Of a DNA stretch of 64,000 bases, positions 3,152-46,475 are shown in pieces. The DNA lies in the NCBI RefSeq assembly GCF_013315695.1, contig NZ_CP054353.1; one strand, 5' to 3'. A program made the translations under genes and the position numbers. The DNA comes from Escherichia coli (GTDB lineage: Bacteria; Pseudomonadota; Gammaproteobacteria; Enterobacterales; Enterobacteriaceae). Position 1 is the stretch's first letter, and each line of letters begins with the position of its first letter. Under the pieces are notes generated by a model. The model did not search any database and was not told where the DNA came from. It was given only the letters and a program-made list of their open reading frames with translations.

Positions 3152-3898
3152 ATGGAACAAGCGCATACCCAGCTGATTGCCCAACTGAACGAACGTATTT
3201 TAGCGGCGGATAACACGCCGCTTTATATTAAGTTTGCCGAAACGGTAAAAAATGCCGTGCGCAGCGGGGTGCTGGAGCATGGCAATATTTTGCCCGGTGA
3301 GCGTGATTTAAGTCAGTTAACCGGCGTTTCGCGCATTACGGTGCGCAAGGCGATGCAGGCGCTGGAAGAAGAGGGCGTGGTGACGCGTTCGCGTGGTTAC
3401 GGCACGCAGATCAACAACATCTTCGAATACTCGCTGAAAGAAGCGCGGGGGTTTTCTCAGCAGGTGGTATTGCGCGGGAAAAAGCCCGATACGCTATGGG
3501 TTAACAAGCGTGTCGTGAAATGTCCCGAAGAAGTCGCGCAACAGCTGGCGGTCGAAGCGGGAAGTGATGTCTTTTTGCTTAAGCGTATTCGCTATGTCGA
3601 TGAAGAGGCGGTATCGATTGAGGAATCGTGGGTTCCGGCGCATTTAATTCATGATGTTGATGCCATCGGAATTTCTCTTTATGACTACTTCCGCAGCCAG
3701 CACATTTACCCACAACGTACGCGTTCCCGCGTTAGCGCCCGGATGCCGGATGCCGAGTTTCAGTCACATATTCAGTTAGATAGCAAAATACCGGTGCTGG
3801 TGATCAAGCAAGTGGCGCTTGACCAACAGCAACGGCCTATTGAGTACAGCATCAGCTACTGTCGCAGCGATCTATACGTTTTTGTGTGCGAGGAGTAG
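3152..3898 (+). CDS. yegW: GntR-family transcriptional regulator
   Basis: 248-aa ORF; N-terminal winged-HTH of GntR/HutC type (ILPGERDLSQLTGVSRITVRKA). Confidence 0.8.
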   Translation: MEQAHTQLIAQLNERILAADNTPLYIKFAETVKNAVRSGVLEHGNILPGERDLSQLTGVSRITVRKAMQALEEEGVVTRSRGYGTQINNIFEYSLKEARGFSQQVVLRGKKPDTLWVNKRVVKCPEEVAQQLAVEAGSDVFLLKRIRYVDEEAVSIEESWVPAHLIHDVDAIGISLYDYFRSQHIYPQRTRSRVSARMPDAEFQSHIQLDSKIPVLVIKQVALDQQQRPIEYSISYCRSDLYVFVCEE

Positions 3899-4837
3899 TT
3901 CCTCGCGCGTTGGCGCACAATCACCGCCCCGATGCCCGACAACCCACGACGCCACTGCATTGCCCAGTAATACGGCATCCGCCAGTGGCAGACCAGAGGC
4001 CAGCCCGGCAAGTACGCCGCCGGCATGACTGTCGCCCGCCCCAATGGTGTCTACAACTTGCGTTGGAAATGCCGGAATGCAGCCAGAAGCGTCGTTGCTG
4101 AAATACCATGCGCCCTCTTTATCGAGACGAATGATCAACGGCGCGGCAAATTTCTCCTGCCATTGCTTGCCTAGTGTTGTTATCTCTGCGGATAGAGCAA
4201 AACGTTCGGCGGCAATCTCAGCCTCCTGACGATTGAGTGACACTAAAGGTCGACAGGCCATGATCCGCGCCAGTAATACATCCGGGATATCGCCAATACG
4301 TGGGCCAAAATCGATAAACGGCGTCACGTCTTGCAGCTTTTCCAGCCATTCCACTAACAATTCGCCGCAGGGCGAGGCCAGTTGATAACCGGAAAAATAG
4401 AGCAGGCTGCCAGGCGCAACGGTTAATCGCGCCAGCCACTGGCGATTCCACTGATTTTCCACACCGCTGAATGACATAAAAGTGCGTTCGCCATCCGGCT
4501 CAACCAGCGCCAGACACCAGCCGTTATCACCTTCGGCGTTATCGATCAGGCTGATTAAGTCCTCTTTTGCCATCCGGTTGCGAATAATCTCCGCCCACAC
4601 CCCCTGACCGAGCGGCAAGGCATTACCCGCTTCGATGCCGAGGCGCTTTAATGCCACGGCAATATTCAGTGCACAGCCGCCAACGTTAACGCTCTGCTGT
4701 TTCAGTTCGATATCGCACCCACGCCAGGGGAGGGCATAAGCGTCGGCGATCACATCAATGACCGCCGCGCCGACGACCATCACCGGCTGACGCGTGGCTA
4801 ATTCAGGCAGCAGCGTGTGTAATCGAGCGCCGCTCAT
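3872..4837 (-). CDS. yegV: PfkB-family sugar kinase
   Basis: 321-aa ORF with ribokinase/PfkB-type motifs (DTIGAGD); convergent with and overlapping yegW by 27 nt. Confidence 0.8.
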   Translation of the reverse strand: MSGARLHTLLPELATRQPVMVVGAAVIDVIADAYALPWRGCDIELKQQSVNVGGCALNIAVALKRLGIEAGNALPLGQGVWAEIIRNRMAKEDLISLIDNAEGDNGWCLALVEPDGERTFMSFSGVENQWNRQWLARLTVAPGSLLYFSGYQLASPCGELLVEWLEKLQDVTPFIDFGPRIGDIPDVLLARIMACRPLVSLNRQEAEIAAERFALSAEITTLGKQWQEKFAAPLIIRLDKEGAWYFSNDASGCIPAFPTQVVDTIGAGDSHAGGVLAGLASGLPLADAVLLGNAVASWVVGHRGGDCAPTREELLLAHKNV

Positions 4838-5838: not shown

Positions 5839-7112
5839 TTAACTTCCCCTTGTGTCAACGCAATATCGCGATCATCGACCTTGATAGCCGTAATTTCGTT
5901 GTCGGATTCGCGGAAAAAAATCATGAACAGCACGGCGATAATGGCAATCATCACCGCGCCGAAAGTCCACATCCCGGCCCAGTTGAAAGTCAGTCCGTTT
6001 ACCGGTTCCTGATAAGCGAACATCTTTTCCATCATCACACCGCCAAGACGATAGCCGAGCAAACTGCCGAAGCCCTGGCAGCAGAGCGTGATCAGCCCCT
6101 GCGCGGCGGTACGCATATGCACGGGAGCTTTTTTATCGACATAGATGTAAGCGGTAACGTAGTAAAAATCGTAACTTACGCCGTGCAGCAAAATACCGAG
6201 GAACAGTAACGCGTAGGTGAAATATTCATCCGCACTACCGTAAATAAAGAAGCCATAGCGGATCGCAGCGGTGACCAGACCAAGTAATAATACCTTTTTG
6301 ATACCAAAGCGTTTGGTAAAAAACGGTAATGCCAGCATAAAGAAGATTTCAGAGAACTGGCCGAGCGTCATCCAGCCAGTGGCGTTTTTCATGCCAACTT
6401 CGGTCAGATAACCGTTGGCAAAGATGTAATAGAACGCCAGTGGCATCGCAAACAGGAATGAACAGAAGAAAAAGACGAGGAAGTTCTTATCGCGCAGCAG
6501 GATCAGCGCATCCAGGCCGAGCATGACTTTAATATCCATTTTGCCGGTGCTTTTTGGTGGCGTGTCGGGCAGGAAAAACGCAAACACACCAAGCAGAGCA
6601 GAACTTCCGGCGGTAATCAGCAGCGGGATGTTCGTCGGTGAGATATCGGCATAACCCAGCATTTGCGGCAAGAATCCACATGCCAGACCAGAGGCAATCC
6701 AGCCGATAGTGCCCATCACACGAATGCGCGGGAAATCACGCTCCACATCCGGCACGTTGGCAAAAGCGATACTGTTAGTCAGCGCAATGGTCGGCATATA
6801 GGTTAGCGAGTAGGCCAGCAGTAACGGGAAGAAGCCGGCAAAAGTGGTCTGTTGCGCAGCGAAATACATCAGCACCGCACCAGCGAACATCAATACCGCC
6901 AGCACTTTCTGTGCCGAGAAAAAGCGGTCAGTGATGGAGCCAACCAGAATCGGCGACAGGATCGCCGCAATGGCGGTACAGGCATACGACCAGCCAATTT
7001 CTCCGGCACTAAAACCGCTTTTACTTAACCACAACCACAATGGCACAAACCACGCGCCCCAGATAAACCATTCAACAAACATCATGAACGACAGCTTTGC
7101 TGTTGTTTTCAT
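5835..7112 (-). CDS. yegT: MFS nucleoside transporter family protein
   Basis: 425-aa highly hydrophobic multi-TM ORF; first gene of yegTUV operon by synteny. Confidence 0.8.
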   Translation of the reverse strand: MKTTAKLSFMMFVEWFIWGAWFVPLWLWLSKSGFSAGEIGWSYACTAIAAILSPILVGSITDRFFSAQKVLAVLMFAGAVLMYFAAQQTTFAGFFPLLLAYSLTYMPTIALTNSIAFANVPDVERDFPRIRVMGTIGWIASGLACGFLPQMLGYADISPTNIPLLITAGSSALLGVFAFFLPDTPPKSTGKMDIKVMLGLDALILLRDKNFLVFFFCSFLFAMPLAFYYIFANGYLTEVGMKNATGWMTLGQFSEIFFMLALPFFTKRFGIKKVLLLGLVTAAIRYGFFIYGSADEYFTYALLFLGILLHGVSYDFYYVTAYIYVDKKAPVHMRTAAQGLITLCCQGFGSLLGYRLGGVMMEKMFAYQEPVNGLTFNWAGMWTFGAVMIAIIAVLFMIFFRESDNEITAIKVDDRDIALTQGEVK

Positions 7113-7170
7113 CTTTTAATTCCTTCATGACAGGTAATGTAAGGTACGCGATGACGGTAATGACTCCAAC

Positions 7171-7674
7171 TTATTGATAGTGTTTTATGTTCAGATAATG
7201 CCCGATGACTTTGTCATGCAGCTCCACCGATTTTGAGAACGACAGCGACTTCCGTCCCAGCCGTGCCAGGTGCTGCCTCAGATTCAGGTTATGCCGCTCA
7301 ATTCGCTGCGTATATCGCTTGCTGATTACGTGCAGCTTTCCCTTCAGGCGGGATTCATACAGCGGCCAGCCATCCGTCATCCATATCACCACGTCAAAGG
7401 GTGACAGCAGGCTCATAAGACGCCCCAGCGTCGCCATAGTGCGTTCACCGAATACGTGCGCAACAACCGTCTTCCGGAGCCTGTCATACGCGTAAAACAG
7501 CCAGCGCTGGCGCGATTTAGCCCCGACATAGCCCCACTGTTCGTCCATTTCCGCGCAGACGATGACGTCACTGCCCGGCTGTATGCGCGAGGTTACCGAC
7601 TGCGGCCTGAGTTTTTTAAGTGACGTAAAATCGTGTTGAGGCCAACGCCCATAATGCGGGCTGTTGCCCGGCAT
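7171..7674 (-). CDS. insB: IS1 InsB' (transposase catalytic part; expressed as InsAB' by -1 frameshift)
   Basis: 167-aa ORF overlapping insA in the -1 frame; identical to the copy at 12049..12552. Confidence 0.9.
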
Positions 7675-7868
7675 CCAACGCCATTCATGGCCATATCAAT
7701 GATTTTCTGGTGCGTACCGGGTTGAGAAGCGGTGTAAGTGAACTGCAGTTGCCATGTTTTACGGCAGTGAGAGCAGAGATAGCGCTGATGTCCGGCGGTG
7801 CTTTTGCCGTTACGCACCACCCCGTCAGTAGCTGAACAGGAGGGACAGCTGATAGAAACAGAAGCCAC
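7593..7868 (-). CDS. insA: IS1 InsA (DNA-binding protein / transposition inhibitor)
   Basis: 91-aa ORF identical to the second copy at 11855..12130; zinc-finger [15 protein letters not shown]...CSHC. Confidence 0.95.
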
Positions 7869-8145
7869 TGGAGCACCTCAAAAACACCATCATACACTAA
7901 ATCAGTAAGTTGGCAGCATCACCCGCGATGACAATACCACTTAATAATACCTTTTAAATACCTTTGCGGTGAAAACTTGACCGCTGTAACATTTTTTCTG
8001 ATGAATCGAGCCAACAGAAAACGCTGAAAAAACATCCAAAAGATGGAAAAACTCGCCCGTAACGACCAGGATTATGATTGCCCGCAAAAGGCGGGCCAGG
8101 ACAATCCATAGCCGATATCCAATCGGAATTTACGGGAGCATAGTA

Positions 8146-9198
8146 ATGACAGATATTGCGCAGTTGCTTGGCAAAGACGCCGACAACCTTTTACAGCACC
8201 GTTGTATGACTATTCCTTCTGACCAGCTTTATCTCCCCGGACATGACTACGTAGACCGCGTGATGATTGACAATAATCGCCCGCCAGCGGTGTTACGTAA
8301 TATGCAGACGTTGTACAACACCGGGCGTCTGGCTGGCACAGGATATCTTTCTATTCTGCCGGTTGACCAGGGCGTTGAGCACTCTGCCGGAGCTTCATTT
8401 GCCGCTAACCCGCTCTACTTTGACCCGAAAAACATTGTTGAACTGGCGATCGAAGCGGGCTGTAACTGCGTGGCGTCAACTTACGGCGTGCTGGCATCGG
8501 TATCTCGGCGTTACGCGCATCGCATTCCATTCCTCGTCAAACTTAATCACAACGAGACGCTAAGTTACCCGAATACCTACGATCAAACGCTGTATGCCAG
8601 CGTGGAGCAGGCGTTCAATATGGGCGCGGTGGCGGTTGGGGCGACTATCTATTTTGGCTCGGAAGAGTCACGTCGCCAGATTGAAGAAATTTCTGCGGCT
8701 TTTGAACGTGCGCACGAGCTGGGCATGGTGACAGTGCTGTGGGCCTATTTGCGTAACTCCGCCTTTAAGAAAGATGGCGTTGATTACCATGTTTCCGCCG
8801 ACCTGACTGGTCAGGCGAACCATCTGGCGGCAACCATAGGTGCAGATATCGTCAAACAAAAAATGGCGGAAAATAACGGCGGCTATAAAGCGATTAATTA
8901 CGGTTATACCGACGATCGTGTTTACAGCAAATTGACCAGCGAAAACCCGATTGATCTGGTGCGTTATCAGTTAGCTAACTGCTATATGGGCCGGGCTGGG
9001 TTGATAAACTCCGGCGGTGCTGCGGGCGGTGAAACTGACCTCAGCGATGCAGTGCGTACTGCGGTTATCAACAAACGCGCTGGCGGAATGGGGCTGATTC
9101 TTGGACGTAAGGCGTTCAAGAAATCGATGGCTGACGGCGTGAAACTGATTAACGCCGTGCAGGACGTTTATCTCGATAGCAAAATTACTATCGCCTGA
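8146..9198 (+). CDS. fbaB: Fructose-bisphosphate aldolase class I
   Basis: ORF 8074..9198 recognised as FbaB; start placed at internal [10 protein letters not shown] (350 aa) as in K-12 from memory. Confidence 0.85.
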
Positions 9199-9283
9199 TA
9201 CGCCTTATACGAACAGCACTACCCCGTATGACGGAAAAGGCGTTTACGTCGCATCCGGCATAAAAACACGCGCACTTTGCTAC

Positions 9284-9311
9284 GGCTTCCCTATCGGGAG
9301 GCCGTTTTTTT
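9284..9311 (+). terminator. Rho-independent terminator candidate downstream of fbaB
   Basis: Hairpin GGCTTCCC-TATC-GGGAGGCC followed by TTTTTTT; a REP-like GCGTTTACGTCGCATCCGGCAT lies just upstream. Confidence 0.6.
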
Positions 9312-9371
9312 GCCTGTCATTCTGATTAATTTTCGAATTGTCGTTTTTGTGATCGTTATCTCGACATTTGA

Positions 9372-11571
<2,200 letters not shown>

Positions 11572-11854
11572 GGACGGTATATGACTAACCTGTTTGTTCG
11601 TAGCGGAATTTCTTTTGTCGATCGTAGCGAAGTTTTAGCCCATATCGGTAATGAGATGCTCGCGAAAGGTGTGGTTCATGATACCTGGCCACAGGCATTA
11701 ATTGCCAGAGAAGCAGAATTCCCTACCGGGATAATGCTTGAGCAGCACGCCATTGCAATACCGCATTGTGAGGCGATTCATGCTAAGTCGTCAGCCATTG
11801 GTGATGCTGCCAACTTACTGATTTAGTGTATGATGGTGTTTTTGAGGTGCTCCA

Positions 11855-12130
11855 GTGGCTTCTGTTTCTATCAGCTGTCCCTCCTGTTCAGCTACTGACG
11901 GGGTGGTGCGTAACGGCAAAAGCACCGCCGGACATCAGCGCTATCTCTGCTCTCACTGCCGTAAAACATGGCAACTGCAGTTCACTTACACCGCTTCTCA
12001 ACCCGGTACGCACCAGAAAATCATTGATATGGCCATGAATGGCGTTGGATGCCGGGCAACAGCCCGCATTATGGGCGTTGGCCTCAACACGATTTTACGT
12101 CACTTAAAAAACTCAGGCCGCAGTCGGTAA
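11855..12130 (+). CDS. insA: IS1 InsA
   Basis: 91-aa ORF, identical to copy 1. Confidence 0.95.
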
Positions 12131-12552
12131 CCTCGCGCATACAGCCGGGCAGTGACGTCATCGTCTGCGCGGAAATGGACGAACAGTGGGGCTATGTCGG
12201 GGCTAAATCGCGCCAGCGCTGGCTGTTTTACGCGTATGACAGGCTCCGGAAGACGGTTGTTGCGCACGTATTCGGTGAACGCACTATGGCGACGCTGGGG
12301 CGTCTTATGAGCCTGCTGTCACCCTTTGACGTGGTGATATGGATGACGGATGGCTGGCCGCTGTATGAATCCCGCCTGAAGGGAAAGCTGCACGTAATCA
12401 GCAAGCGATATACGCAGCGAATTGAGCGGCATAACCTGAATCTGAGGCAGCACCTGGCACGGCTGGGACGGAAGTCGCTGTCGTTCTCAAAATCGGTGGA
12501 GCTGCATGACAAAGTCATCGGGCATTATCTGAACATAAAACACTATCAATAA
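12049..12552 (+). CDS. insB: IS1 InsB'
   Basis: 167-aa ORF in the -1 frame relative to insA, identical to copy 1. Confidence 0.9.
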
Positions 12553-12840
12553 GTTGGAGTCATTACCTCAGCCATTTATCTGTTAAGGCCAACAAATAAA
12601 GTTCATTTTCAGCAAGCGGATGATGATAACGACGTGGCGGTATCGTTGGTTATTGCGTTGATTGTGGAAAATCCGCAGCAGCAATTGAAACTTTTACGCT
12701 GTTTATTTGGCAAGTTACAACAGCCCGATATCGTCGAGACACTAATTACTCTTCCTGAAACTCAGTTAAAGGAATACTTCACAAAGTATGTTTTAGATTC
12801 AGACGAATAAATCCCTCTGTAACAATAAAAAGGACTGTTT

Positions 12841-13125
12841 ATGAAACGCAAGATTATTGTCGCTTGCGGAGGCGCGGTTGCGACCTCCACGATGGCGGCG
12901 GAAGAAATTAAAGAGTTGTGTCAGAGTCATAATATTCCTGTTGAATTAATCCAGTGTCGGGTTAATGAAATAGAAACCTATATGGATGGCGTGCATTTGA
13001 TATGCACCACGGCCAAAGTGGATCGTAGTTTTGGCGATATTCCGTTAGTTCACGGCATGCCTTTTGTTTCTGGTGTCGGTATCGAAGCATTACAAAATAA
13101 AATTCTGACTATCTTACAGGGGTGA
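12841..13125 (+). CDS. gatB: Galactitol PTS EIIB component
   Basis: 94-aa ORF with PTS EIIB active-site cysteine context ([12 protein letters not shown]). Confidence 0.9.
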
Positions 13126-13128
13126 CCT

Positions 13129-14484
13129 ATGTTTTCAGAAGTCATGCGTTATATTCTCGACCTCGGCCCTACGGTGATGCTGCCGATTGTCATCATTATT
13201 TTTTCTAAAATATTAGGCATGAAGGCAGGCGATTGCTTTAAAGCGGGTCTGCATATCGGGATTGGCTTTGTTGGCATTGGCCTTGTGATTGGCTTAATGC
13301 TGGATTCCATTGGTCCGGCGGCGAAAGCGATGGCGGAAAATTTCGACCTGAATCTGCATGTGGTCGATGTCGGCTGGCCGGGCTCTTCACCCATGACCTG
13401 GGCGTCGCAAATTGCGCTGGTGGCGATTCCGATTGCGATTCTGGTTAACGTGGCGATGTTACTGACCCGTATGACGCGGGTGGTAAATGTTGATATCTGG
13501 AATATCTGGCATATGACCTTCACCGGCGCGTTGCTGCATCTGGCAACCGGTTCATGGATGATAGGGATGGCGGGTGTGGTAATTCACGCGGCGTTTGTTT
13601 ATAAGCTCGGCGACTGGTTTGCCCGCGATACCCGAAATTTCTTTGAGCTGGAAGGCATTGCCATCCCGCACGGTACGTCGGCGTATATGGGGCCAATTGC
13701 GGTGCTGGTGGATGCTATCATCGAGAAAATCCCAGGCGTTAACCGAATTAAATTTAGTGCCGACGATATTCAGCGCAAATTTGGTCCGTTTGGCGAGCCT
13801 GTCACCGTGGGTTTTGTGATGGGGCTGATTATCGGCATCCTCGCGGGTTACGATGTCAAAGGTGTATTGCAGCTGGCGGTAAAAACGGCGGCGGTTATGC
13901 TGCTGATGCCACGGGTGATTAAACCCATCATGGATGGTTTAACGCCCATCGCTAAGCAGGCCCGTAGTCGTTTACAGGCGAAGTTCGGCGGTCAGGAGTT
14001 CCTGATTGGCCTGGATCCCGCATTACTGCTGGGGCATACGGCGGTGGTATCGGCAAGCCTGATTTTTATCCCGCTCACCATTTTAATTGCTGTTTGTGTG
14101 CCGGGTAATCAGGTGCTGCCGTTTGGCGACCTTGCCACCATCGGCTTCTTTGTGGCGATGGCGGTCGCGGTGCATCGTGGAAATCTGTTCCGCACCTTAA
14201 TCTCGGGTGTCATCATTATGAGCATCACCCTGTGGATCGCGACGCAAACTATTGGTTTGCACACCCAACTGGCGGCTAATGCGGGCGCGTTAAAAGCCGG
14301 GGGTATGGTGGCTTCAATGGATCAGGGCGGTTCTCCCATTACCTGGTTACTGATTCAGGTTTTCTCCCCGCAAAATATTCCCGGTTTCATTATTATCGGC
14401 GCAATTTATCTGACCGGTATTTTCATGACCTGGCGTAGAGCGCGTGGTTTTATTAAACAAGAGAAAGCCGTTCTCGCAGAATAA
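13129..14484 (+). CDS. gatC: Galactitol PTS EIIC permease
   Basis: 451-aa polytopic membrane ORF following gatB. Confidence 0.9.
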   Translation: MFSEVMRYILDLGPTVMLPIVIIIFSKILGMKAGDCFKAGLHIGIGFVGIGLVIGLMLDSIGPAAKAMAENFDLNLHVVDVGWPGSSPMTWASQIALVAIPIAILVNVAMLLTRMTRVVNVDIWNIWHMTFTGALLHLATGSWMIGMAGVVIHAAFVYKLGDWFARDTRNFFELEGIAIPHGTSAYMGPIAVLVDAIIEKIPGVNRIKFSADDIQRKFGPFGEPVTVGFVMGLIIGILAGYDVKGVLQLAVKTAAVMLLMPRVIKPIMDGLTPIAKQARSRLQAKFGGQEFLIGLDPALLLGHTAVVSASLIFIPLTILIAVCVPGNQVLPFGDLATIGFFVAMAVAVHRGNLFRTLISGVIIMSITLWIATQTIGLHTQLAANAGALKAGGMVASMDQGGSPITWLLIQVFSPQNIPGFIIIGAIYLTGIFMTWRRARGFIKQEKAVLAE

Positions 14485-14531: not shown

Positions 14532-15572
14532 ATGAAATCAGTGGTGAATGATACTGATGGTATCGTGCGCGTAGCAGAAAGCGTCATTCCTGAAATTAAA
14601 CATCAGGATGAGGTGCGGGTAAAAATTGCCAGCTCGGGCTTATGTGGTTCCGATTTACCCAGGATATTTAAAAATGGTGCACATTATTATCCAATAACGT
14701 TAGGCCATGAATTTAGCGGCTATATTGATGCGGTGGGATCCGGTATTGATGATTTACATCCCGGCGATGCGGTTGCCTGTGTGCCGTTATTACCCTGTTT
14801 TACTTGTCCAGAGTGTCTGAAAGGGTTTTATTCCCAGTGCGCAAAATATGATTTTATTGGCTCACGGCGTGATGGTGGATTTGCCGAATATATTGTCGTT
14901 AAGCGAAACAATGTCTTTGCACTACCTGCGGATATGCCTATTGAGGATGGCGCTTTTATTGAACCGATTACCGTTGGCCTGCATGCGTTCCATTTAGCGC
15001 AAGGATGTGAGAATAAAAACGTTATTATTATTGGTGCCGGAACCATTGGCCTGCTGGCAATTCAGTGCGCTGTCGCGCTGGGAGCAAAGAGTGTGACGGC
15101 TATCGACATTAGCTCAGAAAAACTGGCACTGGCAAAATCTTTCGGTGCGATGCAAACATTTAACAGCCGTGAAATGAGCGCGCCGCAAATACAGGGCGTT
15201 TTACGCGAGCTGCGCTTTAATCAGCTTATCCTCGAGACGGCTGGCGTCCCGCAAACCGTCGAACTGGCGGTAGAGATTGCCGGTCCTCATGCCCAACTGG
15301 CGCTGGTGGGCACGTTGCATCAGGATCTGCATTTAACATCGGCAACGTTTGGCAAAATATTGCGTAAAGAGCTGACGGTGATTGGCAGTTGGATGAACTA
15401 CTCCAGCCCTTGGCCGGGGCAGGAGTGGGAAACGGCGAGCCGGTTGCTGACAGAACGTAAGTTAAGCCTGGAGCCATTAATCGCTCACCGTGGAAGCTTT
15501 GAAAGCTTCGCCCAGGCGGTGCGTGACATCGCTCGTAATGCTATGCCGGGCAAAGTGTTGCTCATTCCCTGA
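14532..15572 (+). CDS. gatD: Galactitol-1-phosphate 5-dehydrogenase (Zn-dependent, MDR family)
   Basis: 346-aa ORF with zinc-ADH motifs (GHEFSG; GAGTIGL Rossmann fold). Confidence 0.9.
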   Translation: MKSVVNDTDGIVRVAESVIPEIKHQDEVRVKIASSGLCGSDLPRIFKNGAHYYPITLGHEFSGYIDAVGSGIDDLHPGDAVACVPLLPCFTCPECLKGFYSQCAKYDFIGSRRDGGFAEYIVVKRNNVFALPADMPIEDGAFIEPITVGLHAFHLAQGCENKNVIIIGAGTIGLLAIQCAVALGAKSVTAIDISSEKLALAKSFGAMQTFNSREMSAPQIQGVLRELRFNQLILETAGVPQTVELAVEIAGPHAQLALVGTLHQDLHLTSATFGKILRKELTVIGSWMNYSSPWPGQEWETASRLLTERKLSLEPLIAHRGSFESFAQAVRDIARNAMPGKVLLIP

Positions 15573-15677
15573 AACCGCGGGCCAGCGTGATGCTGGCCCG
15601 GTATTGTGCAAAACAGATCATTCACCAATGGTCCCCCTTCGTTTACACTAGCCACAATTGAATATGGGTAAATGACG

Positions 15678-16451
15678 ATGAATTCATTCGAGCGAAGGAA
15701 TAAGATCATCCAATTAGTGAATGAACAGGGAACCGTGCTTGTTCAGGATCTGGCGGGAGTATTTGCTGCCTCGGAAGCGACAATCCGTGCCGATTTGCGC
15801 TTTCTCGAACAAAAAGGCGTGGTTACGCGCTTTCATGGCGGTGCGGCGAAAATAATGTCCGGTAATAGTGAAACCGAGACCCAGGAAGTCGGGTTTAAAG
15901 AGCGATTTCAGCTCGCCAGCGCGCCAAAAAACAGAATAGCGCAGGCGGCAGTCAAAATGATCCACGAAGGGATGACCGTTATTCTCGACAGCGGAAGTAC
16001 GACAATGCTTATCGCCGAAGGATTAATGACCGCCAAAAATATCACGGTGATTACCAACAGTCTCCCGGCAGCATTTGCCCTTTCCGAAAATAAAGACATT
16101 ACTCTGGTCGTCTGCGGTGGCACGGTCCGCCATAAAACGCGCTCGATGCATGGCTCCATTGCTGAGCGTTCATTGCAGGATATTAATGCCGATTTAATGT
16201 TTGTCGGTGCTGATGGTATTGATGCGGTTAATGGTATTACGACCTTTAATGAAGGCTATTCGATTAGCGGGGCGATGGTCACAGCCGCAAATAAAGTGAT
16301 TGCCGTTCTCGATTCATCGAAATTTAATCGTCGCGGTTTTAATCAGGTACTGCCAATCGAAAAAATTGACATTATTATTACCGATGATGCTGTGTCTGAG
16401 GTGGATAAACTGGCATTGCAGAAGACACGGGTAAAATTAATTACGGTGTAG
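15678..16451 (+). CDS. gatR: DeoR-family repressor of the gat operon, apparently intact
   Basis: ORF 15672..16451 (259 aa) uninterrupted; N-terminal DeoR HTH and C-terminal sugar-phosphate-binding domain. Start codon choice uncertain. Confidence 0.8.
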   Translation: MNSFERRNKIIQLVNEQGTVLVQDLAGVFAASEATIRADLRFLEQKGVVTRFHGGAAKIMSGNSETETQEVGFKERFQLASAPKNRIAQAAVKMIHEGMTVILDSGSTTMLIAEGLMTAKNITVITNSLPAAFALSENKDITLVVCGGTVRHKTRSMHGSIAERSLQDINADLMFVGADGIDAVNGITTFNEGYSISGAMVTAANKVIAVLDSSKFNRRGFNQVLPIEKIDIIITDDAVSEVDKLALQKTRVKLITV

Positions 16452-17846: not shown

Positions 17847-18164
17847 ATGAAAAAGATAGCTGCTATATCATTAATTAGTGTTTTTCTTATGTCTGGTTGT
17901 GCTGTGCATAATGATGAGACAAGTATCGGTAAATTTGGCCTTGCATATAAAAGTAATATTCAGCGTAAACTCGATAACCAATACTACACCGAAGCCGAAG
18001 CTTCTTTAGCCAGGGGCAGAATTTCTGGTGCAGAAAATATAGTAAAAAATGATGCAGCTCATTTCTGTGTTACTCAGGGAAAAAAAATGCAGATAGTTGA
18101 CCTGAAGACAGAAGGTGCAGGATTACATGGCGTCGCTCGTCTGACATTCAAATGTGGAGAGTGA
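17847..18164 (+). CDS. yegR: Small lipoprotein
   Basis: Start placed at MKKIAAISLISVFLMSGC (lipobox LMSGC) within ORF 17787..18164; 105 aa. Confidence 0.7.
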   Translation: MKKIAAISLISVFLMSGCAVHNDETSIGKFGLAYKSNIQRKLDNQYYTEAEASLARGRISGAENIVKNDAAHFCVTQGKKMQIVDLKTEGAGLHGVARLTFKCGE

Positions 18165-18324
18165 GAATATTTTTTGGTAAGCGTCAAATATGCGCGTTCT
18201 GGCTGTGCGTAGCCGGAACCTGTGGGAGCACGATGCCGATAAGTGAAAGGCATCGTGCTATGAAGGAGGATTCTATCGATGTGGTCAATGGAAGATGGTT
18301 ACCAGGATACGACGGCTTATGCAT

Positions 18325-18411
18325 AAAAAATAAGCCCGTGTAAGGGAGATTACACAGGCTAAGGAGGTGGTTCCTGGTACAGCTAGCATTTTATGGGTTA
18401 TGTTTTTCAGC
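18325..18411 (-). ncRNA. cyaR: CyaR (RyeE) Hfq-dependent small RNA
   Basis: Minus-strand sequence GCTGAAAAACATAACCCATAAAATGCTAGCTGTACCAGGAACCACCTCCTTAGCCTGTGTAATCTCCCTTACACGGGCTTATTTTTT matches CyaR as I recall it, including the terminal hairpin and U-run. Confidence 0.85.
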
Positions 18412-18495
18412 GAAACGGATGATAACCTTAATAAATGCAGCTGTATGTGATCGGTTTCTAAGAATTTTCCATCCGGGAAAAATAATCGAAATTAA

Positions 18496-19857
18496 TCACT
18501 TACCGTGGGGGTTACGCGTGGTTTCCCCGGAGAAATTACGCATCAGCAGCGCGTAATTTAGCTCAAGATCCTGCGGGACCGGGATCCACACAGTATAACC
18601 ATCGCCTGGTGCGACCGGCATTGCTTCGCCTTTGGCGTTTTCCATATGCTCAAGGGTAAAGTTAATGTTCCCTTGCGGCGTCATCAGCTCAAGGCTGTCG
18701 CCAACGGAGAATTTATTTTTCACCGCTACCGCCGCGAGGTCGCCCTTGCGCTCACCGGTAAACTCACCAACAAACTGCTGGCGGTCAGAAACTGAATAAC
18801 CGTATTCGTAGTTCTGATAATCGTCGTGAGTATGACGACGCAGGAAACCTTCGGTATAGCCACGATGCGCCAGACCTTCCAGAGTTTCCAGCAGGCTGGT
18901 ATCGAATGGTTTTCCCGCAGCTGCGTCATCGATAGCTTTACGGTAAACCTGCGCGGTGCGTGCGCAATAGTAGAAAGATTTTGTACGACCTTCGATTTTC
19001 AGCGAATGCACGCCCATTTTGGTCAGGCGTTCAACGTGGGCGATAGCGCGCAGATCTTTCGAGTTCATGATGTAAGTGCCGTGCTCATCTTCAAACGCAG
19101 TCATATACTCGCCCGGACGCTGAGCTTCTTCGATCATAAACACTTTGTCGGTTGGCGCGCCGATACCCAGCGTCGGCTCAACATTTTGCACCGGAATCGG
19201 CTCGTACTTATGTACGATGTTGCCAACATCATCTTCTTTCCCTTCCTGGACGTTGTACTCCCAGCGGCAGGCGTTGGTGCAGGTGCCCTGGTTCGGGTCG
19301 CGCTTGTTGATATAGCCAGAGAGCAGGCAGCGACCGGAGTAGGCCATGCACAGCGCGCCGTGAACGAAGATTTCGATCTCCATATCCGGCACCTGATTGC
19401 GGATCTCTTCAATCTCTTCCAGCGACAGCTCGCGAGAGAGGATCACGCGGGTCAGGCCCATTTGCTGCCAGAATTTCACCGTCGCCCAGTTCACGGCGTT
19501 AGCCTGCACCGAGAGGTGGATCGGCATTTCAGGGAAGTGCTCGCGCACCAGCATAATCAGCCCTGGATCGGACATAATCAGCGCATCCGGCCCCATCTCC
19601 ACCACCGGTTTCAGGTCACGGATAAAGGTTTTCAGCTTGGCGTTGTGCGGTGCAATGTTGACCACGACATAAAACTTTTTCCCCAGCGCGTGGGCTTCAT
19701 TGATGCCGAGCTGAAGATTTTCGTGGTTGAATTCGTTGTTGCGCACACGCAGGGAGTAACGTGGCTGGCCCGCATAAACAGCATCTGCGCCATAAGCGAA
19801 AGCGTAACGCATATTTTTCAGCGTTCCCGCCGGGGAAAGGAGTTCCGGTTTAAACAT
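18496..19857 (-). CDS. yegQ: Peptidase U32 family protein
   Basis: 453-aa ORF recognised as YegQ; adjacent to cyaR as in K-12. Confidence 0.85.
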   Translation of the reverse strand: MFKPELLSPAGTLKNMRYAFAYGADAVYAGQPRYSLRVRNNEFNHENLQLGINEAHALGKKFYVVVNIAPHNAKLKTFIRDLKPVVEMGPDALIMSDPGLIMLVREHFPEMPIHLSVQANAVNWATVKFWQQMGLTRVILSRELSLEEIEEIRNQVPDMEIEIFVHGALCMAYSGRCLLSGYINKRDPNQGTCTNACRWEYNVQEGKEDDVGNIVHKYEPIPVQNVEPTLGIGAPTDKVFMIEEAQRPGEYMTAFEDEHGTYIMNSKDLRAIAHVERLTKMGVHSLKIEGRTKSFYYCARTAQVYRKAIDDAAAGKPFDTSLLETLEGLAHRGYTEGFLRRHTHDDYQNYEYGYSVSDRQQFVGEFTGERKGDLAAVAVKNKFSVGDSLELMTPQGNINFTLEHMENAKGEAMPVAPGDGYTVWIPVPQDLELNYALLMRNFSGETTRNPHGK

Positions 19858-38967: not shown

Positions 38968-41900
38968 TCAGTTAATCGCGAAATAACTGCTATTCACCAG
39001 CAAATCCAGCGGTTGGGCATCGGCAATCACATCGCCATAAATCAGATCGACGCCGATGCCCGAAAGCGTATCCATCACTAAGGGTAAAACGACTGGCCCG
39101 GCGATGGTTTTCATCCCGAGTCGCTGAGCATGCCCCTGAATAATCGTAATCAGCATCTCATCCATCAAATTACCCTGCACGCTGGCGCATAACTCACCAT
39201 CAAGTAGCAGGTAATCTGCCATATTTGCTTTCAGCGAGTTGAAGATTTGCAGATCGCGGCCCACCTGACTGAATACGATCCGACATCCCGCCAGCCGCAG
39301 TTTTTGCACGCTTGCTGCGTGATCTAAAATCGCGTCTGCCGGAATAATCAGATGTAATAACCGTGGTGGTAGAGGGCTATTTTCCAGCTGCTCAATTAGT
39401 TCATTCACCAGCGTGGCGCTACTCAAACCGGCAACGGAAAGGGGGAGGGCGATGCTTAAGCCTTTACTGGCAATCGCTTTTGCGGCCTGCTGGAAAAAAT
39501 CGTGGAATACCCGTCGGTCAAGAGCATGGCTAAGTGCCGGATCGCTGAAGCTACGACGAAATGTTTGTTCATCAATAATCTCGCCTTCGCAACTCCAGAG
39601 CTTAAGTGAAATCAGCCACAAATTACGCGCTTGCGGGATCCGCGGCGAAGCGACACCGTGGGCGATCATCATCAACTGATTCTCTTTAATCATCCGCCTC
39701 TGTTCATCAAGCGATATCGCCGCCCGTTCGCTATGTGCGGCAGCTTGCTGCGGTTCGTAAACCGTCACCCGGCCCCGTCCACCATTTTTGGAGGCATAAC
39801 AGGCGATATCAGCCTGCGACATCACTTCAGCCGCCTGATGATTGTTGTCATCAATCAAGGTAATCCCGGCACTGGCACCTACCCGATGTACACGTCCTTC
39901 CCAGATAAAGTGATAGTCATTCACGGCGCTGATAATGCGTGTAGCGATAAAACGCGCACTTTCGACATTACAATCTGGCAGCAGCAGACCAAATTCATCG
40001 CCACCGAGTCGCGCCAGCACGTCGCTGGAGCGCAGCATACTCAGCATCAACGACGCCAGTTCGCGCAGTAAAGCGTCGCCCGCCGCATGCCCGGCGCTGT
40101 CATTCACCGCTTTAAAGCGATCAAGATCGATAAACACCAGGGCATGTCGCTGATGCGTACTGTTTACCGTTTGCAGCAGGATGCGTAGTTGCTTCTCAAA
40201 ACTGGCGCGATTGGCGAGATGCGTCAGTGCATCATGGGAGGCGCTGTAGCTCAGCTGGCGCAGCATTTTGCGTGATTCGGTGACGTCCTGAATCACCAGA
40301 ACCGAGCCTATATTGCTGCCGTCCAGAGTACTTAACGGCGTAATACTGTAATGCACGTCGTAGCTGCCGCCGCTTCGGCAGTGCAACACCACATCTTGTT
40401 CAATCGCGGAACGTGAGGTGTCGGCACTGTAAATGTTCTCCATTAATGGTCCGTTGTCGCCAAAAGTAATATGCAACACCGTCAGGAGCGGAACACCTAA
40501 CGCTTCTTCCTGCGTCCAGCCGCTCATCTTCTCCTTCTCCGCCACCGGATTCATAAAGGTAATTTTCATTGCCATATCAATACAGACCACGGCTTCGCCG
40601 ATGGAATCCAGCGTTATGTGCAGGCGCTCTTTTTCCTGAAACAATGCCTCGTTAAGCTGTTTCACTTCGGTCATATCCATATTAATGCCGAGCAGGCGTT
40701 CGACTTCGCCTTCTTTATTCAGTACCCGGTTAGCGAGGGCGCGGATATGGCGAATGCCGTCTTTCACGGTAATGCGAAATTCCAGTTTAAAGGGCGAGCG
40801 TGATTGCAACGAATCACGAATCACGAATCACTTTTTCGGCGTGTTGGCGATCTTCCGGCAGCACGCACTCGTACCACACCTGCCAGTTCGGTTTGATATG
40901 CGGAGGAATTTCATACAGCTCGAACATCCGCTTATCCCAGCTAAAAATATTCGGCTTCAGCTCCCACTCCCAGATGCCAATCCCGCCCGCTTCGTTAGCC
41001 AGCGTGATGCGCTCCATCAGTTGCTGATTCACCTGTTCGGTGCGTTTTAGCTCGTTAATGTCTTCAATCTGAGCGATAAAATAGAGCGGCGTGCCATCCG
41101 TGTGGCGCACCAGTGAGACGGCAAGCAACGCCCAGACAACATCGCCATTGCGGTTGTAGTAGCGTTTTTCCATTGAATAGGTGTTTATTTCACCGCTGAT
41201 CAGCTTTTCAACCTGTTGGAGATCTTTATTGAGATCCTCCGGCCAGGTCAGTTGCTGAAAGGTGAGTCCGCGCAGCTCTTCCTGACTGTAACCGAGAAAC
41301 TGGCAGAGTGCTTTGTTGGATTGCAGCCATTGCCCCTCGGTGCCCACTAATGCCATGCCGATGGCGGAATATTCCATGGCGTTACGAAAACGGGTTTCGC
41401 TTTCGGAAATGTGTTTGCGTTCCGCACGAAAGGCATACATCACCATGGTCATGATGTTGGCGGGCAGCAGGATCAGCAAAAACGGTAGCCACGGCATATG
41501 GCTCATCAGGTATGTACGCGGCGTAGCAAGCAGGGAGGGATCAGCGGCCATCATCAGTGACACCATCATCACCGTGGTAAGGAAGATCAAAAAGGCTTCC
41601 ATTCGTGGCAGGCGCACGGCGCTCCACATCAACAGCACAATAATGAAAGTAAAAGGCCACGGCAGATACAGCATCGAAAGCCAGCTTAACGTCAGTGTGA
41701 TGGCTAACGTGAGCAGCGACTCAAAAAGCAACCGTGGGTTGCGATGGCGCAGCAGATAGTGTGGTTTAAATAACAATCCCAGCGGCACCAGTGCCAGTGC
41801 GCCGATGGATTCTGACAGTACCCATATCAAAAATGCCCTGAGAGGATCGTCTCCGGGCGTCAGCAGGATAACCAGAACACCCCCTAACAGAGGTGGAACA

Positions 41901-42298
41901 ATGGCGCTGCCGAGTGCTAGACGCAGCCAGTCAGCCAGATTTTGCAATGGGTTATACCACGGCAGCAATTTACGCAGTAGCACTGCCCCGACCACGGCTT
42001 CAACAATATTGATGGTCGTCCAGGTCATGTTCAGCGAGCTGGTGGAAAAAAGCAGGATGGATGCGGCGATATTTCCCAGCGAGCAGCTCAGCGCAATCCC
42101 CGGCCACATGCGCCCGGCATGGCGATAAAACGCCACCATCATGATGGACGTCGGGAACCACAGTGGGGCGAGTTGGGTGCCAAACTGCGAAAGCTCAAGT
42201 GAGAAAAGGGTGAAGATAAACGAGACTAAACCTAAACTGACCAGGTGAAGCAGCGGGTGGGGCAGGGCAATTAATACATGCTGTGATTGTTTGCTCAT
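38968..42298 (-). pseudogene. dgcE: Diguanylate cyclase DgcE (MASE1-PAS-GGDEF-EAL), frameshifted by a 7-bp tandem duplication
   Basis: Two ORFs (40814..42298 membrane MASE1 plus PAS; 38968..40824 PAS-GGDEF-EAL) in different frames overlapping at three tandem copies of GAATCAC (40811..40831); deleting one copy gives a continuous ORF of about 1105 aa. Confidence 0.8.
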
Positions 42299-45857: not shown

Positions 45858-46148
45858 CTAAGCAGCATGTGGATATTGAATTTCAATACGTTGAATATGC
45901 AATCCTGCATGAGCCATCATGGTGATCAATTTATCGATACTAAAGATCTGGATCTTACCTCTGGCAAGTTCAGATATGCGAGGTTGAGTGACCCCTAAAG
46001 CAGACGCTGCCTGAGCCTGGCTAAACCCTTGTTGTTCAATCCAGTTATTAATGATCGTTACAAGTTCGGCACGGATCCGCATATTTTCCGCTTGTTCAGG
46101 GGTGTCACTCACCGCATCCCACACACTATCAAAGGTTTCAATTTTCAT
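45858..46148 (-). CDS. HigA-like antitoxin (XRE-family HTH)
   Basis: HTH QAQAASALGVTQPRISELARGK; immediately downstream of and overlapping a RelE/ParE-superfamily toxin-like ORF, the HigB-HigA gene order. Start codon uncertain (46148 or 46166). Confidence 0.65.
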   Translation of the reverse strand: MKIETFDSVWDAVSDTPEQAENMRIRAELVTIINNWIEQQGFSQAQAASALGVTQPRISELARGKIQIFSIDKLITMMAHAGLHIQRIEIQYPHAA

Positions 46149-46475
46149 TTTTCCGCTCCTGAACAAGTTCTTTATAGCGTCGTTTGTCTAAATCAATATC
46201 CGATTGACTGGTAGTCTGTGTTTTCTTTTGAAAACAATGCAATACGTAAACCGCTTCTTCAAATTTTGCGATATACATGACGCGATAGATCCCATCAGCA
46301 TCGCGAGTACGAATCTCTCGCACACCAGGGCCGATAGTTGAAAAGGTTTCCAGTCGTATGGGTTTAACCCTTGTTGGATCCTGTCGAGTTGATAGCCAAT
46401 TTCCTGTCGAGACGATTCTGGAAATGCGCGTAAATCGTCAAGACTGGTATCAAGAAAAGCCAGCTTTTTTCTCAT
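46138..46475 (-). pseudogene. HigB-like toxin (RelE/ParE superfamily), split by a frameshift
   Basis: N-terminal part (46188..46475) and C-terminal part (46138..46323) are in different frames; adding one T/A in the A4 run at 46341..46344 gives a continuous toxin of about 112 aa. Confidence 0.6.

Follow-up and report, generated by a model that had tools for sequence, protein, structure and literature searches.

Results

An IS1 element splits gatA in an otherwise complete gat locus

The window, by which we mean the whole 64,000-nucleotide stretch of Escherichia coli DNA that was analyzed, contains all seven gat genes (gatYZABCD-gatR) in their canonical order between fbaB and yegS. Five of these genes are full length and gave end-to-end matches to NCBIfam models, all on the + strand: gatY, encoding a 284-aa tagatose-1,6-bisphosphate aldolase subunit (9426-10280; NF006626 and TIGR01858 matched over their full length; the RefSeq protein at a near-identical locus is WP_000289798.1); gatZ, encoding 420 aa (10309-11571; NF011626 positions 1-420, 898 bits); gatB, encoding the 94-aa EIIB (12841-13125; NF007643 positions 1-94 of 94); gatC, encoding the 451-aa EIIC (13129-14484; TIGR00827, 711 bits); and gatD, encoding the 346-aa galactitol-1-phosphate 5-dehydrogenase (14532-15572; NF007642, 726 bits). 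The gene for the DeoR-family repressor, gatR, is also uninterrupted on the + strand; with the RefSeq start it spans 15678-16451 and encodes 257 aa, and an alternative ATG at 15672 yields a 259-aa ORF. The only gat lesion in the window lies in gatA, the gene for the EIIA component of the galactitol phosphotransferase system (PTS).

Inside gatA we found a complete IS1 of the IS1A type, 768 bp long and on the + strand (11800-12567), which places it in the same direction as the gat operon. A 39-nt IS1 end pattern gave 2 matches in the window where 0 were expected from 100 shuffles. The element has the length of about 768 bp typical of its family, together with terminal inverted repeats of about 23 bp that are imperfect in the manner of IS1 (GGTGATGCTGCCAACTTACTGAT versus GGTAATGACTCCAACTTATTGAT, agreeing at 18 of 23 positions by hand count), a 9-bp target duplication, and overlapping insA and insB' frames. 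In the ORF list, insA encodes 91 aa (11855-12130, + strand) and insB' encodes 167 aa (12049-12552, + strand). Their joining by a programmed -1 frameshift was read from this overlap and from the RefSeq label at a near-identical locus, 'IS1-like element IS1A family transposase, programmed frameshift'. Transposition of IS1 duplicates 9 bp of target, sometimes 8, and the element in gatA is bordered on both sides by the perfect 9-bp direct repeat TCAGCCATT (11791-11799 and 12568-12576).

The gatA ATG is at 11581 and the final base ahead of IS1 is nucleotide 219 of the gene, so that the break falls exactly after codon 73, precisely where the initial annotation had placed it. The same annotation had claimed that IS1 parts gatY, gatZ and the 5' portion of gatA from gatBCD, which the coordinates and ORFs bear out, and that a 150-aa GatA returns once IS1 and one copy of the duplication are removed. 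Splicing 11581-11799 to 12577-12810 did restore a 150-aa ORF followed by a stop codon. The restored protein matched the NCBIfam equivalog NF007236 over positions 1-150 of 150 with 298 bits (cut-off 139), has the same sequence as GatA of strain MS 21-1, and departs from the K-12 protein at a single residue, A20T.

As it stands in the window, the disrupted gatA ORF encodes 81 aa (11581-11826), made up of 73 GatA residues and 8 residues contributed by IS1 (GDAANLLI), and its product covers only positions 1-73 of the 150-position GatA model. The sole EIIA domain of the restored protein, Pfam PTS_EIIA_2 at residues 10-136, is halved by the element; a full-length EIIA-Gat (150 aa with one PTS_EIIA_2 domain) is absent, its frame being split after residue 73. 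The 5' fragment (codons 1-73; 11581-11799, + strand), described in RefSeq as 'incomplete; missing C-terminus', retains His62 in a PHC motif, which we take to be the phosphorylation site. The 3' fragment (codons 71-150 in frame; 12568-12810, + strand) is described as 'missing N-terminus', and the sole start codon of its own is an internal GTG at 12634 that opens a 58-aa ORF.

The repressor is intact, unlike that of K-12

K-12 MG1655 has the same operon, with the same gene order and the same neighbors (yegS, fbaB and yegT), and there too the locus has been altered by an insertion sequence. In that strain gatR is split by IS3E, at a point corresponding to about position 15976 of the window, and gatC is also a pseudogene. 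The initial annotation had stated, correctly, that K-12 gatR contains an insertion, and had described the 259-aa gatR ORF of the window as uninterrupted. The comparison agrees on both counts: gatR is contiguous here, and it encodes a GatR identical to that obtained by piecing together the two K-12 fragments. Sousa et al. (PMC5850726) ascribe the constitutive expression of gat in K-12 to its gatR insertion. K-12 therefore differs from the window in having an element of another family in the repressor gene and constitutive expression, whereas here the gene occupied by IS1 is a structural one and gatR is intact. The outcome expected here is the opposite of that in K-12, namely loss of function rather than constitutive expression.

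The insertion in gatA is recent and belongs to one clone

The exact gatA-IS1 junction occurred in 2 of 5,426 complete E. coli genomes: MSB1_4I, a rectal-swab isolate from Australia, and AF3, a blood-culture isolate from the UK. The RefSeq records of both genomes already show gatA as a pseudogene in two fragments, with an 'IS1A family transposase' between them. Across about 60 kb, 5 positions separate the window from MSB1_4I, and we therefore assign it to the MSB1_4I/AF3 clone. Other relatives were ranked with an IS-free query, since a query spanning the IS lets genomes with a nearby IS1 outrank true relatives. By this ranking the closest other genomes were MS 21-1 (human colon, USA) and AF14 (blood, UK), which differ from the window by 1 and 3 SNPs, respectively, across a gat region of 6,524 bp. 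In each of them gatA is intact at 150 aa, and neither carries the IS1 in gatA or the second IS1 copy of the window (see below). The existence of near-identical relatives without the insertion indicates that the IS1 in gatA is recent and specific to one clone.

Copies of insertion sequences are a classic source of misassembly, and gatY of AF3 shows a possible homopolymer-type error, but the chance that an assembler misplaced an IS1 copy in gatA is negligible: a perfect target duplication is present, and two assemblies that come from separate studies in different countries show the same junction, as does the window, itself 5 SNPs from MSB1_4I. The insertion is real, heritable, recent and confined to one clone.

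Two separate simple insertions of IS1

The window holds a second IS1, 100% identical to the gatA copy over the whole 768 bp, on the - strand at 7156-7923. It lies between yegT and fbaB, 43 bp ahead of the ATG of yegT, and is flanked by its own 9-bp duplication, CGCGATGAC (7147-7155 and 7924-7932). Both MSB1_4I and AF3 also carry this copy, making the two IS1 junctions a clone-specific marker common to the Australian and UK isolates. The presence of an identical IS1 pair 3.9 kb apart, together with at least 40 IS1-matching pieces in MSB1_4I, points to recent IS1 activity in the lineage. The second copy is a product of that same activity in the clone and is separate from the gatA lesion.

The pair of 100% identical IS1 copies, inverted relative to each other and bracketing 7924-11799, also invites the reading that the copies and the 3.9 kb between them (fbaB, gatY, gatZ and the 5' part of gatA) form a composite transposon that moved as a unit or was imported. 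This is extremely unlikely. The two copies have separate perfect 9-bp duplications, CGCGATGAC for one and TCAGCCATT for the other, and a duplication for each copy implies two separate simple insertions. The gene order yegT-fbaB-gatYZABCDR-yegS is the same in K-12 and in the relatives that lack IS1, and the DNA between the elements shows no SNP relative to those relatives across gatY and the 5' part of gatA. We rejected a Tn9-like composite transposon on the grounds that no outer duplication is shared and that the synteny is native. Instead, a simple transposition of IS1 very probably inactivated gatA in one recent, IS1-rich E. coli clone.

Predicted consequences for galactitol use and downstream expression

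With its EIIA domain cut after residue 73 of 150, the strain should be unable to make a functional EIIA-Gat. In the PTS phosphorelay, phosphate cannot reach GatB without EIIA-Gat. Its loss would thus break the relay to GatB and GatC, galactitol would be neither taken up nor phosphorylated, and the strain would be galactitol-negative, the natural reading of a halved EIIA. Another galactitol-family EIIA encoded elsewhere in the genome, such as the product of an sgcA-like gene, might substitute. The diagnostic trait predicted for the strain is a galactitol (dulcitol) negative phenotype.

Effects beyond gatA itself are also predicted. Polarity is a classical property of IS1 insertions, whichever way the element points, and this one interrupts the gatYZABCD transcription unit midway, where it would be expected to lower transcription of gatBCD from the gatY promoter. 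Because GatR is intact and inducer would not enter the cell, the remainder of the operon would stay repressed. Malamy, Starlinger, Saedler, Adhya and co-workers reportedly described classical mutations of the gal and lac operons in the 1970s in which an inserted IS1 had polar effects. Those mutations resemble the present one in combining a 768-bp IS1 with a 9-bp duplication within a polycistronic sugar operon, and in the expectation that the gene hit is lost and downstream expression reduced. They were selected laboratory mutants, however, whereas the gatA insertion is found in a natural isolate and its polarity is only predicted.

A consensus promoter scan of positions 9150-13200 returned 3 promoter-like sites, compared with 5.3 expected from shuffled sequence. 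The site upstream of gatY (TTGAAA-16-TATTTT; 9368-9395, + strand) is undisturbed, lies just past a terminator-like fbaB hairpin (9282-9305), and is a candidate gat operon promoter. The left end of IS1 has its own inward promoter-like site (11807-11834). A weak native site (TTGGCA-16-TATCGT; 12707-12734) lies in the 3' fragment of gatA, 107 bp upstream of gatB, and may leave room for some gatBCD transcription. At the right end of IS1, which faces outward, and at its junction, the scan of this region returned no promoter-like site.

The initial annotation had suggested that gatBCD expression might be driven by IS1. For this to happen, either transcription leaving IS1 or a hybrid promoter formed at its right end would have to express gatBCD free of GatR, and some features favor such rewiring: IS1 has the same direction as gatBCD, its left-end promoter-like site was detected, and IS1 ends are said (by Prentki et al. 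in 1986) to supply hybrid promoters with a -35 element. Against rewiring, the left-end promoter of IS1 is weak and is repressed by InsA, IS1 insertions are polar as noted above, the scan was empty at the right end and junction, the best right-end hybrid found by eye (TTGGAG at 12554-12559, a spacing of 17, and TATCTG) agreed at 6 of 12 positions, and GatB, GatC and GatD, even if made, would leave the transporter without its EIIA. An outward IS1 promoter for gatBCD was therefore rejected as unsupported by both the scan and manual reading, and we consider rewiring of the operon by IS1 very unlikely.

IS1 has entered the gat operon repeatedly across E. coli

Among the 5,426 complete genomes, gatA was found in 5,003 and was fragmented in 61. 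To survey IS1 insertions we used a junction query of 300 bp of gatZ-gatA joined to 300 bp of IS1, which is specific for orientation and detects IS1 alone, not other insertion sequences or deletions. Counted per genome, without correction for phylogeny or target preference, IS1 in the same orientation lay on or beside the gatZ-gatA segment in 33 of 5,426 genomes, and a mirror query placed IS1 in the opposite orientation beside the segment in 25 of 5,426, at no fewer than 16 different spacings. Both orientations together represent at least 20 separate IS1 arrangements. As controls, the same method and manner of counting gave 2 genomes for yegT, a neighbor that is non-essential and close in GC content, and 0 for yegI.

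Several of the same-orientation insertions were mapped, and these fall at distinct positions. IS1 after gatA nucleotide 219, with duplication TCAGCCATT, is the event in the clone of the window (2 genomes). IS1 after nucleotide 218, with duplication GTCAGCCAT, was present in 13 genomes including MMC-J-0050; after nucleotide 195, with TGTGAGGCG, in ATCC 98082, a K-12 derivative; and after nucleotide 44, with TGTCGATCG, in Ecol_517. In PEC41 the element is at the 3' end of gatZ, with duplication CGCTACGGC. IS1 after nucleotide 154, found in 8 genomes including Ecol_AZ147 and strains named ST540, has no duplication and is accompanied by a deletion through gatB. These carriers share with the window the element family, the operon and the expected result, and the event at nucleotide 218 has the same orientation and is only 1 bp away; the insertion points and target duplications nonetheless differ, which marks them as separate IS1 events. 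Carriers of the opposite orientation include REL606 and C600 (gatZ annotated as split), TG1 and NEB Turbo, as well as isolates from pigs, cattle, deer, frogs, poultry and lettuce.

Several of the other carriers bear further gat lesions: a gatY stop, a frameshift in gatZ or gatD, an IS5 insertion in gatC, or a deletion from the 5' part of gatA into gatB. The multiple lesions in some of these lineages look like operon decay. As in the window, gatR is annotated as intact in MMC-J-0050, Ecol_AZ147, PEC41 and Ecol_517.

IS1 prefers AT-rich targets. The GC content of gatA is 42.6%, and the insertion described here lies at the edge of a trough of 33% GC, which fits that preference. Two of the five same-orientation gatA sites fall within 1 bp of each other, an event with a chance probability of about 0.064; the proximity of the insertions after nucleotides 218 and 219 is therefore suggestive of a hotspot, though not significant.

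Discussion

Work from the Gordo and Sousa groups documents the inactivation of gat by insertion sequences in experimental populations. Gat-negative mutants sweep through K-12 populations colonizing the mouse gut, 79% of them through IS insertions (Barroso-Batista 2014, PMC3945185), and insertions in gatA, gatC, gatZ and the gatY regulatory region produce the gat-negative state (PMC3945185). The inactivation rate of the locus is about 1e-5 per generation (Lourenco 2016, PMC5094792), galactitol inhibits the growth of gat-positive K-12, and loss of gat confers a benefit of ~8% in the mouse gut (PMC3945185, PMC5094792). Gat-negative clones are also common among Enterobacteriaceae from the feces of healthy humans (Sousa 2017, PMC5850726), and in several of the sampled human hosts they were dominant (PMC5850726).

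The mouse-gut mutants are like the insertion described here in that an insertion sequence in the gat structural genes or the gatY regulatory region abolishes galactitol use. They differ in background: those mutants arose in laboratory K-12 with gatR already inactive, whereas the clone that carries the present insertion is natural and human-associated and has an uninterrupted gatR. When gatR was restored, K-12 gave no gat-negative mutants in mice within 19 days and instead gained IS insertions that inactivated the repressor (PMC5850726). The adaptive argument made for K-12 therefore does not carry over directly to a strain with an intact repressor.

It is possible, but doubtful, that the gatA insertion was positively selected, galactitol uptake being a liability in the host gut through galactitol-1-phosphate toxicity or the cost of expression. 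The excess of IS1 in the gat region (33 and 25 genomes, compared with 2 and 0 at the controls), the several lineages with multiple structural gat lesions and an annotated intact gatR, the growth inhibition and gut benefit measured in K-12, and the dominance of gat-negative clones in some human hosts all argue for selection. Weighing against it are the behavior of K-12 with restored gatR, the fact that our counts are uncorrected for phylogeny, and the burst of IS1 in this clone, which favors drift; the enrichment itself could also reflect the taste of IS1 for an AT-rich stretch in a dispensable operon.

A bolder reading, which we consider less likely than not, is that the AT-rich middle of gatA (nucleotides 218/219), and more broadly the region from gatZ to gatB, is a natural IS1 hotspot and that loss of galactitol uptake is recurrently favored in host-associated E. 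coli despite a working GatR. If so, the mouse-gut result obtained with deregulated K-12 would reflect a polymorphism that is general and still ongoing among wild and clinical lineages, and the clone shared by an Australian rectal swab and a UK blood culture would be one example of it.

Taken by itself, the IS1 in gatA is an ordinary knockout, already recorded in the RefSeq annotation, in an operon that is a published mutational hotspot and a frequent IS target. Our literature search returned nothing specific on this strain or lesion, on IS1 insertions in gatZ of B strains, or on IS1 polarity or outward transcription. What is mildly new is that structural genes are knocked out with the repressor intact, both here and in several natural lineages, a modest extension of the published picture. 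The insertion adds one more case for placing gat among the loci that insertion sequences most readily inactivate in E. coli.

IS1 insertions around gatZ-gatA-gatB

Orientation-specific junction queries against 5,426 complete E. coli genomes identified IS1 on or adjoining the gatZ-gatA query segment in 33 genomes in the same orientation as the gatA copy in the window and in 25 in the opposite orientation, counted without regard to kinship. The same approach at the control loci yegT and yegI returned 2 and 0 genomes, respectively. Carriers at the gatZ-gatA segment include the laboratory strains REL606, C600, TG1 and NEB Turbo.

MMC-J-0050 (NZ_CM128547.1) carries an IS1 at positions 8300-9067 of its extracted locus, as do 12 similar genomes. 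This copy has the same orientation as the gatA IS1 of the window, lies 1 bp upstream of its site, and is associated with the target duplication GTCAGCCAT. The MMC-J-0050 lineage differs from that of the window, their gat regions being ~96-98% identical, and the MMC-J-0050-type insertion is an independent event. In that lineage gatY contains an internal stop and gatR is annotated as intact.

A second IS1 upstream of yegT

The window contains a second IS1, on the minus strand at 7156-7923, that is 100% identical to the gatA copy and flanked by its own pair of repeats, CGCGATGAC (7147-7155 and 7924-7932). It lies upstream of both neighbouring genes, 43 bp from the start codon of yegT and 222 bp from fbaB, a placement that probably separates yegTUV from their own promoter. 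MS 21-1 and AF14, the nearest relatives, lack this insertion. Together, the yegT-side and gatA copies form an inverted pair enclosing 3,876 bp (fbaB-gatYZA’), and recombination between them could invert this segment.

Further annotated lesions within the clone

AF3 (NZ_OZ547117.1), the UK member of the clone, has two additional annotated lesions: a 1-bp deletion in a GC-rich run near nucleotide 40 of gatY (6928-7781 of the AF3 locus), and an internal stop in yegT (3337-4614). Neither was found in the window or in MSB1_4I, and they represent either decay subsequent to the IS1 insertions or long-read assembly errors. The RefSeq annotation of the near-identical MSB1_4I lists two frameshifted pseudogenes: dgcE, for a diguanylate cyclase, and one for a RelE/ParE-family toxin. 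Their coordinates map from there to approximately 38968-42298 and 46138-46475 of the window, respectively.

The yegR-yegQ-yegP region

In the lineage of the window, the annotated gap between yegR and yegQ/trhP is only ~330 bp (18164-18496), whereas in K-12 the same gap (1115-1990 of the K-12 locus) holds a P2-like remnant (ogrK, yegZ, ‘cryptic prophage PR-X’). A ParD/RelE toxin-antitoxin pair sits between yegQ and yegP in the window’s lineage.

gatR substitutions and the distribution of gatA

MS 21-1 and AF14 have kept gatA intact, and each has a different non-synonymous substitution in gatR (10102-10875 of either locus; 257-aa numbering): R86K in MS 21-1, equivalent to window position 15934, and E114K in AF14, equivalent to position 16017. 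R86K is the single SNP of MS 21-1 in 6.5 kb, and E114K is among three in AF14. Two substitutions are too few to interpret, but selection on the GatR repressor may be shifting in this lineage.

Species-wide, a near-identity megablast search returned no gatA match in 423 of the 5,426 complete genomes, which indicates that part of the species is without gatA at least, and probably without the gat operon.
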